Shown: in pieces, positions 56,568 to 60,153 of the stretch
Layout of the letters: each line of letters starts with the position of its first letter
How positions within the stretch are numbered: position 1 is the stretch's first letter
From: Candidatus Calditenuis fumarioli
GTDB lineage: Archaea > Thermoproteota > Nitrososphaeria_A > Caldarchaeales > Calditenuaceae
Reading direction: 5' to 3'
DNA length: 64,000 nt
NCBI GenBank assembly: GCA_030059665.1
Contig: JANVYR010000001.1
Span: 160,001-224,000, forward strand
Notes under the pieces: model-generated
The model's database searches: none
The model's input: the letters and a program-made list of their open reading frames with translations, nothing else
Told to the model about the DNA's origin: nothing
Position numbers and translations under genes: made by a program

Positions 56568-58904
56568 TCAGATCAGGTAGAAGAGCGGGAAGAGGAATAC
56601 CCAGACTATGTCGACGAAGTGCCAGTAGTAGCCGAAGTACTCGATCGCCTCCCAGTTGTCCTTGCCGTAGTGGCCCTTGGCTGCCCGGTAGATCAGGTAG
56701 ATCAGCGCCAGCAGTCCAGCCGTGACGTGGGCGCCGTGTACGCCGGTCGTGAGGAAGAACGTCGAGGCCGGCAGCGAGCTCGAGAAGGTGATCCCGTGCT
56801 CGAATAGCTCCCTCCACTCGTTGTACTTGTTGAACAGGAAGGCGAGACCGAGCAGCAGCGTCGCACCCAGGAACCCCGCGGTCAGACTCCTCTTGTCTGC
56901 CCTGGCTGAGGCGAGCGCGAGGACAACGGTCAGGCTGCTCGTCAACAGTATGAAGGTGTTGGTGGCGCCGTGCCAAATGTCCAGCATCTCGCCGGGTGCG
57001 GGCCAGGAGCTGCTGGCCGACCTGACGAACAGGTACGCGGAGATCAGCACGCCGAAGAGGGTGACCTCGGAGGCGATGAACGTCCACCAGCCCAGCTTGA
57101 CCCTGTCGATCTTCTCGAACGGCCACCGCTCGCCGAAGGGCTCCTCGTGGGCGATGAAGCGCTCCCTTGCCCATCCCACCACAGACAGCGCGAAGACGAT
57201 CAGGCCGGGTATCAGCAGCGCGTTGTGCACCGTGAGGCCAGCCAGCGAGAGGAACGCTCCCAGGCTCACCGCGAACGGGTAGATCGAGTGGTGTGTCGCC
57301 TCAGCGAGGTGGGAGTGGGCACCGTTCATCGAGACGAACGCGAGCTTGCCTCCAGCGAAGCTCGGTATCGCGGGGAAGTTGCCGGGCGGTGGCGGCGACT
57401 CGGTGGCCCACTCCAGCGTGAAGGCGTCCCAAGGGTTGCTCCCCGCTGGGCTGCCGTTCCGGAGGCTGTAGAGGAAGTTCCAGAACATGATCAGGAACGA
57501 GAGGCCGAAGATCAGCCCTCCTATGGTCGCCAGCTGGTGGTACGGCAGCAGTTCGGGCTGGTAGATCGGAACCCTCCTGGGCGTCTGCCACGCGAGGAAG
57601 AGCGGGAAGTACAGCAGGTTGTACCCTATAATCGCGGTGACGAAGTGGATCCTCCCGAGTTTCTCGTCGAACATCCTCCCGGTCATCTTCGGATACCAGT
57701 AGTAGAGGCCTGCGATGAGCCCCAGCAGACCGCCGCCAACCATGGTGTAGTGGAAGTGCGCCACGACGAAGTACGTCCCCCTCAGTATGTAGTCGAGCGC
57801 GTTGGACCCCAGGAAGACTCCTGTTATGCCGCCGACGATGAAGACGCCTATCGAGCCAACCGCGAACAGCAAAGGCGTGCTGACCCTGATCTTCCCCTTC
57901 GCAAGGGAGTAGATGTAGGAGAGGATGATGGCGTCGAATGGTATCGAGATAGCTATCGTCGTTATCGTGAAGACCCTCCTGATGTCCTGGCTGATTCCCG
58001 TGTTGAACATGTGATGACCCCAGACGAGGAAGCTCAGCACAGCCACGATGGTCATGGCCGCCATCACTGCGGTCCTTCCGTAGAGGTGCCTCCTCGTCGA
58101 TGCCTGGATGATCTCTGCCATTGCGCCTAGCGCCGGGAAGAGGACGATGTACACCTCAGGGTGGCCGAAGAACCAGAAGACGTGGTCCCAGAGCAGTGAT
58201 CCGCCCTCAGGGCTCGAGAGGTACACCGTGCCCAAGAGCCTGTCGGAAGCCAACAGGATGATCCCAGCCAGCAGAGGCGGGAATGCGTAAAGCATCATCA
58301 GCACCGTCAGGAGCACCGAGAAGGTGAAGAGCGGCATCCTCCGTATCGTGAGGCCCTGGGCCCTGGACCTGAATATCGTGACGACGAAGTTCACCGTGGA
58401 GACGGTCACAGACGCCGTCAGGAGCGCGAGCCCGAGACCGCCTGTGTTGACGCCTACGTAGGGCGAGAACCGCGAGGTCGTCAGAGGTGCGTACATGGTC
58501 CATCCTGCGTCTATCGCGCTGTCCTGGAAGAACGAGATGAGCGTGAGGACGCCTCCGAAGAGATATAGCCAGTAGCTCAGCGCGTTCAGCCTCGGGAAGG
58601 CGAGATCCCTCGCTCCTATCTGGAGGGGCACGACGTAGTTAGCCAGCGCGAAGGCCAGGGGTGAGATCACGAAAAGTATCATGATCAGGCCGTGCATTGA
58701 GACGGCCTGGTTGAACTGCTGCGGGTTCAGCAGCTTTATCGCCGGATCGGCGAGCTGGAACCTGAAGAGCAGCGCAAGGGTCCCGCCGACGATCAGGAAG
58801 TAGAGAGAAGTGACCAGATACAGGATTCCGACGTCCTTGTGGTCGGTCGTCGTCAGCCAGCGCCTGATCGAAGAGGCGGGAAGGTGCTGACCCTGATGCG
58901 CCAT
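56568..58904 (-). CDS. Heme-copper oxygen reductase, fused subunits I+III (A1-type core)
   Basis: TTDHKDVG, MHG, DLAFPRLN, GHPEVY, WGHH, AHFHY and PRR; subunit III motifs SEVTLF, HGAHV and YWHFVDIVW. Confidence 0.95.
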   Translation of the reverse strand: MAHQGQHLPASSIRRWLTTTDHKDVGILYLVTSLYFLIVGGTLALLFRFQLADPAIKLLNPQQFNQAVSMHGLIMILFVISPLAFALANYVVPLQIGARDLAFPRLNALSYWLYLFGGVLTLISFFQDSAIDAGWTMYAPLTTSRFSPYVGVNTGGLGLALLTASVTVSTVNFVVTIFRSRAQGLTIRRMPLFTFSVLLTVLMMLYAFPPLLAGIILLASDRLLGTVYLSSPEGGSLLWDHVFWFFGHPEVYIVLFPALGAMAEIIQASTRRHLYGRTAVMAAMTIVAVLSFLVWGHHMFNTGISQDIRRVFTITTIAISIPFDAIILSYIYSLAKGKIRVSTPLLFAVGSIGVFIVGGITGVFLGSNALDYILRGTYFVVAHFHYTMVGGGLLGLIAGLYYWYPKMTGRMFDEKLGRIHFVTAIIGYNLLYFPLFLAWQTPRRVPIYQPELLPYHQLATIGGLIFGLSFLIMFWNFLYSLRNGSPAGSNPWDAFTLEWATESPPPPGNFPAIPSFAGGKLAFVSMNGAHSHLAEATHHSIYPFAVSLGAFLSLAGLTVHNALLIPGLIVFALSVVGWARERFIAHEEPFGERWPFEKIDRVKLGWWTFIASEVTLFGVLISAYLFVRSASSSWPAPGEMLDIWHGATNTFILLTSSLTVVLALASARADKRSLTAGFLGATLLLGLAFLFNKYNEWRELFEHGITFSSSLPASTFFLTTGVHGAHVTAGLLALIYLIYRAAKGHYGKDNWEAIEYFGYYWHFVDIVWVFLFPLFYLI

Positions 58905-58905
58905 C

Positions 58906-59529
58906 TCAACCACCCCCCTCGTACCAGGCCTTGAACTCCTGCTCCGTGACCGCGACGATCCTGCCGGTCATCACGCCGTGACCGGTCCCGCAGAGCTCGA
59001 AGCATCTGACCTCATAGGTCCCAGGTACCCTGATGACGGTCCAGTAGGTGTTGATCTTCCCCGGTACCGCGTCGATCCCGATGCCGAGGGAGAGGACGCC
59101 GAACTTGTGGAAGACGTCCCTGCTGGTGACGTAGAACTTGATCGGCCTGTCTATCGGAACGCGCGCCTCACCCAGGACCGTCTTGCCGTTCGGGTAGGTG
59201 AACTCCCAGCCCCACTGGAACGCGGTCACCCTGATCTCGAGAGCATCAGCCGGAGGCGTCTCGAGGTACGCGAGGGTCGAGAACGTGCTGAAGATCAGCG
59301 TTGTCACGATCGTCGCGCTCAGCGCAATGGAGATCAGCAACCTGTACGGAAAGCCCTCCGAGGTCGGCAGCTCGCCCAGCTCCACGTCCCTCCCCTTCAC
59401 CTCCTTTGCCCTGACGTGCTTGATCAGGTGGTACAGCATGTAGCCCAGCACCACGAAGAAGACGATAGTGCCCAGGGTGAGGAACGTGTCGAAGAGGGAG
59501 TAGACGGCTTCGGCCGTCGTGCTCACCAT
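58906..59529 (-). CDS. coxB: Heme-copper oxidase subunit II with CuA centre
   Basis: Two TM helices, FQWGW, DVFH and CFELCGTGHGVM. Confidence 0.95.
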   Translation of the reverse strand: MVSTTAEAVYSLFDTFLTLGTIVFFVVLGYMLYHLIKHVRAKEVKGRDVELGELPTSEGFPYRLLISIALSATIVTTLIFSTFSTLAYLETPPADALEIRVTAFQWGWEFTYPNGKTVLGEARVPIDRPIKFYVTSRDVFHKFGVLSLGIGIDAVPGKINTYWTVIRVPGTYEVRCFELCGTGHGVMTGRIVAVTEQEFKAWYEGGG

Positions 59530-59550
59530 CGGCGAATGGTCGGCATCCTC

Positions 59551-59688: not shown

Positions 59689-60063
59689 TCAGGAGACTTC
59701 TTTCCGGCCTTCGCGGTACGACCTGATGACCCAGTCCTCGATCAGGGTGCATCCCACCGGGCTGACGCTCTGGTCGGGGCCGCAGTTGGGGTTGAAGGGG
59801 CAGAGGGGACAGGGAGCGCCGAAGAGGGGCGACGGATCGAACCGCTTGATGAGCGGGATCAGCTTGAGCGTCCACCTCTCGTTCGCGAGCACCTTCTCCC
59901 TCCTCACTATGCCCTTCTTCTCCAGCTTGATGGCCAGCCTCGACCCCTCCCTGCTCGAGATGCCGAGCATGTGCCAGAGCTCCGACTGCAGGATTCCCTC
60001 CTCGTGCTCTAGGAGGATGCGAATGGCTTGCTCCTCCAACCGAGCGAGCTTAGAGGTCTGCAT
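59689..60063 (-). CDS. tfeB: Transcription factor E beta subunit (RPC34/RPC39-like winged helix plus Fe-S domain)
   Basis: Winged helix GILQSELWHMLGISSREGSRL...LEKKG, followed by PCPLCP...C...SPVGC...W (four Cys). Confidence 0.82.
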   Translation of the reverse strand: MQTSKLARLEEQAIRILLEHEEGILQSELWHMLGISSREGSRLAIKLEKKGIVRREKVLANERWTLKLIPLIKRFDPSPLFGAPCPLCPFNPNCGPDQSVSPVGCTLIEDWVIRSYREGRKEVS

Positions 60064-60153
60064 CTTCCGTCTCTGCTGATGATAATTGCGTTCCCCTGTA
60101 TTTAAGTAAAGTCTCACGAAACGGAAAAGGAGATCCTAAGTCCCCTCTAGTCC

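Follow-up and report, generated by a model that had tools for sequence, protein, structure and literature searches.

How does an A-type heme-copper oxidase supply protons to its active site when the canonical residues of its K-channel have all been replaced? This question is raised by coxB-coxAC, a gene pair of the hot-spring archaeon Candidatus Calditenuis fumarioli (assembly GCA_030059665.1, contig JANVYR010000001.1) located at positions 56568–59529 of a 64,000-nucleotide stretch (contig positions 160,001–224,000), hereafter the window. Judging from their sequences, CoxB and CoxAC form an A1 heme-copper oxidase that is of the heme A type, contains CuA, and belongs to the archaeal lineage with fused I+III (CoxAC/AoxA). 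A first-pass annotation, prepared from the nucleotide sequence without database searches, had reported an intact D-channel and active site but no K-channel. The K side looks remodeled rather than simply lost, because Asp327 of helix VIII occupies one of two alternative sites of a carboxylate that all members of the clade containing CoxAC retain. The coding regions of the pair are as follows.

58906–59529, minus strand: coxB, subunit II, 207 aa, with two transmembrane helices and a CuA cupredoxin domain (PF00116, 9e-17; TIGR02866, 160.6 bits, above cut-off; alignment to PDB subunit II chains)
56568–58913, minus strand: coxAC, fused subunit I+III, 781 aa from GTG or 778 aa from the ATG at 58904 (PF00115, 5.5e-131; PF00510, 1.4e-20)
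56568–57311, minus strand: subunit III domain, residues ~535–781, of the seven-helix type, plus the stop codon (COX3 profile positions 16–254 of 258; aligns to bovine and Rhodobacter subunit III)

Replacement of the K-Pathway and the Mg Site

Residues were placed by HMMER pairwise alignments to Thermus caa3 (PDB 2YEV) and mycobacterial aa3, and by a MAFFT alignment of 268 sequences in which Escherichia coli CyoB served as the numbering ruler (Ec). Helix VIII of CoxAC reads IPFDAIILSY (residues 324–333) where the reference is IPTGVKIFNW, so that T359, G360, and K362 (Ec numbering) are replaced by F326, D327, and I329, respectively. The positions concerned are listed below.

57903–57968, minus strand: helix VIII, residues 316–337, with I320 (Ec 353), S323 (Ec 356), F326 (Ec T359), D327 (Ec G360), I329 (Ec K362), and S332 (Ec 365); gap-free alignment anchored on TT and P
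57933–57935, minus strand: codon of D327 (translation)
58113–58118, minus strand: A266-E267 of helix VI (Ec S299-E300), in which the K-channel Ser is Ala (alignment)
59338–59340, minus strand: L64 of subunit II, the site of the K-channel entry Glu (second transmembrane helix; CyoA E89 column; Glu in Thermus caa3) (alignment)
57771–57785, minus strand: LRGTY, in which the HD of the Mg/Mn site is R378-G379 (Ec H411 to Arg, D412 to Gly) (alignment)

These alignments bear out what the first-pass annotation had read at four places: Phe for the K-channel Thr, Ile for the Lys together with a new Asp, RG for the HD of the Mg site, and the missing entry Glu in the second transmembrane helix of subunit II. 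The helix VIII motif was also right in its residues but not in its coordinates, since it spans 30 nucleotides (57915–57944) and not 21. In the AlphaFold model of CoxAC (predicted local distance difference test score, pLDDT, 85.5; template-modeling score 0.88 to 2YEV_A over the full length), the helix comprises the 31 residues 309–339, which places D327 in its middle.

Two candidate replacements for the lost residues were rejected. A Lys shifted along helix VIII, the finding that the annotation had said would overturn its view, is absent: the membrane part of the helix holds no Lys, and the only nearby ones lie in the following cytoplasmic loop (LAKGK), as they do in ordinary enzymes. Likewise, E267, which follows the lost Ser299, is not a new acidic element, because E. 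coli CyoB and most A-type enzymes carry Glu or Asp at that site.

The change in subunit II accompanies the change in subunit I. Counted over loci where both genes were readable, the entry Glu is lost in all 18 K-less clade loci examined and kept in essentially all of ~45 Lys-containing loci, the latter including, among the matches listed, bacterial enzymes that served as controls.

A Clade of K-Less Archaeal Oxidases

When 188 non-redundant cores of subunit I were placed in a tree with Shimodaira–Hasegawa-like support values, the sequences with Phe359 and RG formed one clade of 84 tips (support 1.0), in which CoxAC groups with Aeropyrum, Marsarchaeota, Thermoplasmata, and haloarchaeal COX13. 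None of the 84 tips has Lys362 and all have Gly412 in place of D412; in the nearest outgroup sequence, which reads PTGIK here, the Lys is present. The clade includes Aigarchaeota, non-ammonia-oxidizing Nitrososphaerota, haloarchaeal CoxAC2, the Aeropyrum AoxA type, Marsarchaeota, and Thermoplasmata, and among its cluster names are Desulfurococcales, Marsarchaeota, Ferroplasma, Sysuiplasma, marine Euryarchaeota, and Hydrothermarchaeota. Compared with a set of 45 Lys-containing A1 enzymes, the clade-specific changes are A356 to Ser (99% of the clade), T359 to Phe (94%), H411 to Arg (94%), D412 to Gly (100%), M116 to Ser (94%), G327 to Ser (100%), and Phe to Tyr at three more positions. At the Mg site, the Lys-containing enzymes have His and Asp in 82% each.

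Could these substitutions instead be assembly errors, or the marks of relaxed selection in a decaying gene? The motif P-F-(D/G/E) without Lys occurs in 120 of the 120 nearest database homologues, including haloarchaea of named cultured genera, and the same residues recur in 14 relatives' genomes; the substitutions are thus not unique to this assembly, and it was such uniqueness that the annotation had named as fatal to its claim. The coxAC frame is open and free of stops. Among same-family orthologues, dN/dS is 0.07–0.15 for coxAC, in comparisons with dS below ~1.5 and hence unsaturated, and 0.10–0.36 for coxB. Decay and assembly error are therefore excluded, and the data support purifying selection on coxAC and the earlier view that the coordinated changes mark a real clade.

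The database proteins nearest to CoxAC are labeled Nitrososphaerota/Aigarchaeota, and coxAC was found in 15 of the 18 same-family genomes, and none of the six other genomes in the genus lacks it. A sister family (f4) has an unfused, Lys-containing A1 oxidase whose subunit II retains the Glu, and some of its genomes hold an additional fused K-less copy. In this family (locus L104 and related loci), subunit II of the Lys-containing enzyme appears to begin at the Glu-bearing transmembrane helix (M-E-R-x-K-x-V-E-N) and would then have one transmembrane helix rather than two.

A Single Carboxylate on Helix VIII

Helix VIII bears exactly one carboxylate in each of 136 clade sequences; none has both positions occupied and none has neither. 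The earlier description of an enzyme with no K-channel thus holds for the canonical K residues, which are gone, but apparently not as a simple loss. The acid is at position 360 in 104 sequences (99 Asp and 5 Glu), CoxAC among them, and at position 353 in the other 32, always as Glu. All tips with Gly or Ala at position 360 have Glu at 353 (28/28 tips). Between the two sites lies Ser356, found in 135 of the 136 sequences, and E353 is accompanied by Asn401 of helix IX in 26 of 32. By contrast, no acid occupies position 353 or 360 in any of 79 Lys-containing sequences, and E353 occurs in 4 of 44 other Lys-less ones. Parsimony on the tree indicates that E353 is ancestral, that the acid moved to position 360 at least five times independently, and that no lineage has lost it.

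Positions 353 and 360, seven residues apart, share one face of the helix. Canonical enzymes have Ala at 356 and Gly at 360, which face the invariant G394/G398 (GxxxG) of helix IX; because of this opposition, Ser356 and Asp360 probably fill the VIII/IX interface beside the former K-channel. A comparison of 13 loci revealed no systematic ionizable difference in the transmembrane helices of subunit II between enzymes with the acid at 353 and those with it at 360. An obligatory, position-switching carboxylate of helix VIII was not found described in the literature searched.

Retained Catalytic Core

The K-pathway changes stand in an otherwise complete catalytic core. As the first-pass annotation had stated, the six His ligands, the GHPEVY motif, and the D-channel are intact, on which the alignments to 2YEV, mycobacterial aa3, and CyoB agree. 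The His ligands are H74, H251, H300, H301, H386, and H388 (Ec H106, H284, H333, H334, H419, and H421), and the pair R446-R447 (Ec R481/R482) is also kept. The remaining features of the core are as follows.

58149–58166, minus strand: GHPEVY, residues 250–255, with the CuB ligand H251, the D-channel Glu E253, and the cross-link Tyr Y255 (translation and alignment)
58584–58646, minus strand: D-channel entrance N92, D103, and N110 (Ec N124, D135, and N142) (alignment)
58969–59004, minus strand: CuA motif C176-x-E178-x-C180-G-x2-H184-x2-M187 of subunit II (translation, alignment to PDB subunit II chains)
59107–59109, minus strand: H141, the first CuA His of subunit II (translation, alignment)

The D-channel set NDNE (N92, D103, N110, and E253) is invariant across the clade, and the CuA ligands of subunit II are complete (H141, C176, E178, C180, H184, and M187). 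The best PDB sequence match of CoxAC is the I+III chain of Thermus caa3 (2YEV_A, 2.7e-132).

The marks of the A1 type (Pereira 2001; Sousa 2011 classifier, PMC3084760) are present in the six His, the helix VI Tyr, the D-channel with GHPEV, and the CuA subunit II, but at the K-channel positions of the same scheme (Lys354, Thr351, and Ser291 in Paracoccus numbering; PMC3084760, Table 2) CoxAC has Ile, Phe, and Ala. It is still classed as A1 because the classifier splits A1 from A2 using D-channel residues only (PMC3084760). Its D-channel, its hydrophobic K positions, and the missing Glu of subunit II set it apart from the B type, and the retained Y255 from the heme-copper nitric oxide (NO) reductases, in which the Tyr is lost and an FeB Glu ligand (H-x3-E) is found.

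The Oxidase in Its Genome

No Tyr-bearing oxidase other than CoxAC was found in the genome, nor was cytochrome bd. The genome also encodes two synthases for heme O and a short one for heme A, together with a cytochrome b and seven blue copper proteins, one of which is probably the electron donor of CoxB-CoxAC. The short heme A synthase, a 165-aa frame of the four-helix archaeal type, lies ~10 kb past the end of the window (contig 1, 233871–234098) and would fit an oxidase of the aa3 type or a related one with heme A. Cultivated and in situ studies of the genus Calditenuis show obligate aerobic activity and an expressed heme-copper oxidase (PMC12979851, PMC4681859). In view of the catalytic residues, the selection on the genes, and this gene content, the product of coxB-coxAC is probably the terminal oxygen reductase with which this aerobic archaeon of the Caldarchaeales ('Aigarchaeota') works, a reading taken together with the mechanism proposed below.

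A second, very divergent heme-copper protein of 487 aa (P0123) is encoded outside the window (contig 1, 88023–89369, minus strand; locus L002:1429–2892), with a CuA subunit II at L002:2894–3445, and gave no PDB sequence match. It has H-N-L-M-E for H-P-E-V-Y, in which Tyr is replaced by Glu (H-x3-E), with Leu at the D-channel Glu, and A-H-L-M for A-H-F-H, in which the second axial His of the low-spin heme is Met. The nNOR has been described as combining a cNOR-type active site with a His/Met low-spin heme (PMC11214002), and because H-x3-E and the His/Met heme fit this description, the protein is a candidate NO reductase of the nNOR-like kind. Similar genes in relatives' genomes are weak matches with frames of 520–530 aa.

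The joint loss of the K-channel and the Mg site had led the annotation to consider altered chemistry, by which CoxAC would chiefly reduce NO or peroxide, or would scavenge O2 without pumping; A-family oxidases show some NO reductase activity (PMC11214002). Yet CoxAC retains its His-Tyr motif, the CuB His (three in number), and E253, which is associated with pumping; the known NOR families lose the Tyr (PMC11214002), and the genome has a separate Tyr-less, nNOR-like enzyme. Moreover, no other O2 reductase was found in this genome, whose lineage has aerobic cultivated relatives, and the Aeropyrum homologue functions as an oxidase (PMC3062577). Because the O2-reducing site is complete and no second Tyr-bearing oxidase was found in the genome, altered chemistry is most unlikely.

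Proposed Proton Supply

Altered proton supply is the natural inference from the residue changes. At the residue level, the intact D-channel, from D103, N92, and N110 to E253, would carry pumped and chemical protons. During the reductive half-cycle, protons would reach heme a3-CuB by a remodeled route on the neighboring face of helix VIII, built, where helices VIII and IX meet, on the obligatory carboxylate (D327 here, Glu353 in others) together with Ser323, which is nearly invariant. Such a route is suggested by the obligatory single carboxylate and its absence from Lys-containing oxidases. In the favored division of labor, the D-channel would serve the oxidative phase and pumping, and the K-side relay would feed the binuclear center during reduction. 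R378 probably sits in place of Mg2+ and may pair with E178 of subunit II. Extended to the archaeal CoxAC lineage, this would be a proton-input route new to heme-copper oxidases, in which a carboxylate at 353 or 360 and Ser356 at the VIII/IX interface replace the K-pathway of Lys, Thr, Ser, and the subunit II Glu, and which evolved together with the change of the Mg site to Arg; we advance this wider proposal only tentatively.

The main rival is simpler. The K side may be closed; the D-channel would then admit each of the eight protons per O2, whether chemical or pumped, and the carboxylate would have a structural role, an arrangement that would mirror the single-channel B and C types. All canonical K residues, including the Glu of subunit II, are hydrophobic here, NDNE is invariant, and by helical-wheel arithmetic the acid lies on the Ala356/Gly360 packing face and not on that of K362. 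Single-channel oxidases do exist in the B and C families, which have a single K-analogue channel (PMC11214002). A D-channel-only enzyme leaves unexplained, however, why all 136 sequences keep exactly one carboxylate across at least five position switches and why it is found in none of the 79 Lys-containing enzymes. Furthermore, K362M mutants of canonical enzymes are almost inactive, and the canonical D-channel cannot rescue them. The rival is thus a possible explanation, but the less likely one.

Several points weigh against the remodeled route and the reading that includes it. By helical-wheel arithmetic, the 353/356/360 face is turned ~100–140° from that of K362/T359/T352, and since the acid sits on the face of the Ala356/Gly360 contact with helix IX, it could be a packing or hydrogen-bonding element rather than a proton carrier. 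Any cycle fed through the D-channel only would need compensation because of the near inactivity of the canonical K362M enzymes. The R378-G379 loop is modeled with pLDDT < 50. We know of no activity, H+/e− ratio, or structure for any D360-type member, and, as the genome is 91% complete, another oxidase may be missing from the assembly.

Gene Arrangement and Neighborhood

The coxB and coxAC frames overlap on the minus strand. For coxAC, the ATG at 58904 is the more likely start and is preferred over the GTG; it follows the stop codon of coxB by two nucleotides, and a G-rich ribosome-binding stretch precedes it. One feature was noted upstream of coxB.

59543–59550, minus strand: TTAATATT, a TATA-like box 14–21 nucleotides upstream of the coxB ATG, with a purine-rich stretch before the box (by reading of the sequence only)

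The TTAATATT box is a candidate archaeal promoter for a near-leaderless coxB-coxAC transcript. Directly upstream of coxB, a 142-aa open reading frame (59689–60117, minus strand) gives a weak match to the MarR-type helix-turn-helix (E 1.2e-4, under the Pfam cut-off) and is a possible regulator of the oxidase operon. The neighbors of coxB-coxAC are archaeal housekeeping genes, namely those for an archaeal GluRS and a YchF-like GTPase, carB, and ndk. The assembly comprises 1.57 Mb in three contigs.

Comparison with Known Oxidases

The study of Degli Esposti et al. 2021 (PMC8239418) lists archaeal fused COX1-3 as 'K-channel: no, modified/hybrid', with examples from Marsarchaeota, Aeropyrum, Ferroplasma/Picrophilus (Ferroplasmaceae), and Haloarcula hispanica. 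The pattern given there is T351F, a hydrophobic residue at K354, S291A, and a hydrophobic or non-ionizable residue at COX2 E78, and several independent K-channel losses in family A are inferred. CoxAC shows this pattern in its I+III fusion (one 781-aa frame), F326, I329, A266, and L64 of subunit II, and thereby belongs to the same category of that archaeal COX13 catalogue (A1, COX3 fusion, K-channel 'no, modified', COX2 E78 replaced). Aigarchaeota/Caldarchaeales are not listed in the catalogue, and the tables consulted do not score positions 353, 356, and 360 or the RG of the Mg site. Since both the K-less CoxAC group and one active member are already in the literature, the central observation is not new, and its novelty is less than the first-pass annotation implied.

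The active member is the enzyme of Aeropyrum pernix, AoxA (I+III)/AoxB, which has been purified and oxidizes N,N,N′,N′-tetramethyl-p-phenylenediamine (TMPD)/cytochrome c (Ishikawa et al. 2002, as cited in PMC3062577 and PMC8305020). The Aeropyrum AoxABC aa3 (oa3) oxidase belongs to the K-less clade and shares with CoxB-CoxAC the fused I+III, the CuA subunit II, T359F, a hydrophobic residue at 362, Ala299, RG, and the lack of the subunit II Glu. AoxA and CoxAC are ~49% identical, but the helix VIII acid of AoxA at position 360 is Glu, not Asp. To our knowledge, there are no proton-pumping data for AoxABC. The pattern of Aeropyrum camini in PMC8239418 is that of clade cluster P0126.

CoxAC2 of Haloferax volcanii (HVO_1645), annotated as a homologue of APE_0793.1 (PMC8305020), and other haloarchaeal fused I+III proteins are 50–55% identical to CoxAC. 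They have PFDLMVF in helix VIII and RG at the Mg site, the signature that the annotation had named for haloarchaea. They differ from CoxAC in Met at 362 and in acidic N-terminal extensions, and their hosts also have a Lys-containing CoxA1 and other oxidases.

Among solved structures, Thermus thermophilus caa3 (2YEV) is the best match and shares the I+III fusion architecture, but it is of the A2 type (Y-S for the helix VI Glu), keeps PTGVK, the HD of the Mg site, and the Glu of subunit II, a subunit that in this enzyme includes a cytochrome c domain. The K362M variant of Rhodobacter sphaeroides aa3 (3OM3) has the same fold and, as in CoxAC, a hydrophobic residue for the Lys at the same position. 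There, however, it is a single, crippling engineered change, whereas the change in CoxAC is natural and comes with T359F, S299A, loss of the subunit II Glu, S356, D360, and RG. The B-type ba3 oxidases are a precedent for a Lys-less input path, a single channel, and the absence of the Mg site. Unlike CoxAC, which has a D-channel and hydrophobic K positions, they lack the D-channel and have a hydroxyl-lined K analogue (Thr/Ser/Tyr and the subunit II Glu).

Ammonia-oxidizing archaea had been expected to share the enzyme, but this was rejected: in the amoA-positive family (f5), all 45 genomes sampled encode another A-family subunit I, which is unfused, is ~35% identical to that of CoxAC, and falls outside the PF/RG clade. 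As seen at loci L125 and L127 (genomes G050 and G071), it represents a separate Lys-less lineage with A-V-P-A-S-A-M-V, a retained HD Mg site, and Tyr at the Ser299 site, as in B-type enzymes. The amoA-negative family f20 (SoxM-like length) and family f13 keep the Lys.

Implications

Genome papers routinely call archaeal coxAC 'D- and K-channel possessing A1' (PMC10640624, PMC9287336), a label used because the classifier checks D-channel residues only. The CoxAC locus shows that this label is wrong for a whole archaeal lineage, and textbook A-type oxidases are defined by two proton channels. The K-less lineage is the main or only oxidase of Caldarchaeales and has paralogues in haloarchaea, Thermoplasmata, Marsarchaeota, and Desulfurococcales. 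Its never-lost, position-switching carboxylate is a concrete mutational target for asking by what means the active site of an A-type oxidase is reduced when the Lys is missing. Haloferax volcanii (HVO_1645) offers a genetically tractable host for such work, and Aeropyrum a thermostable homologue that can be purified.

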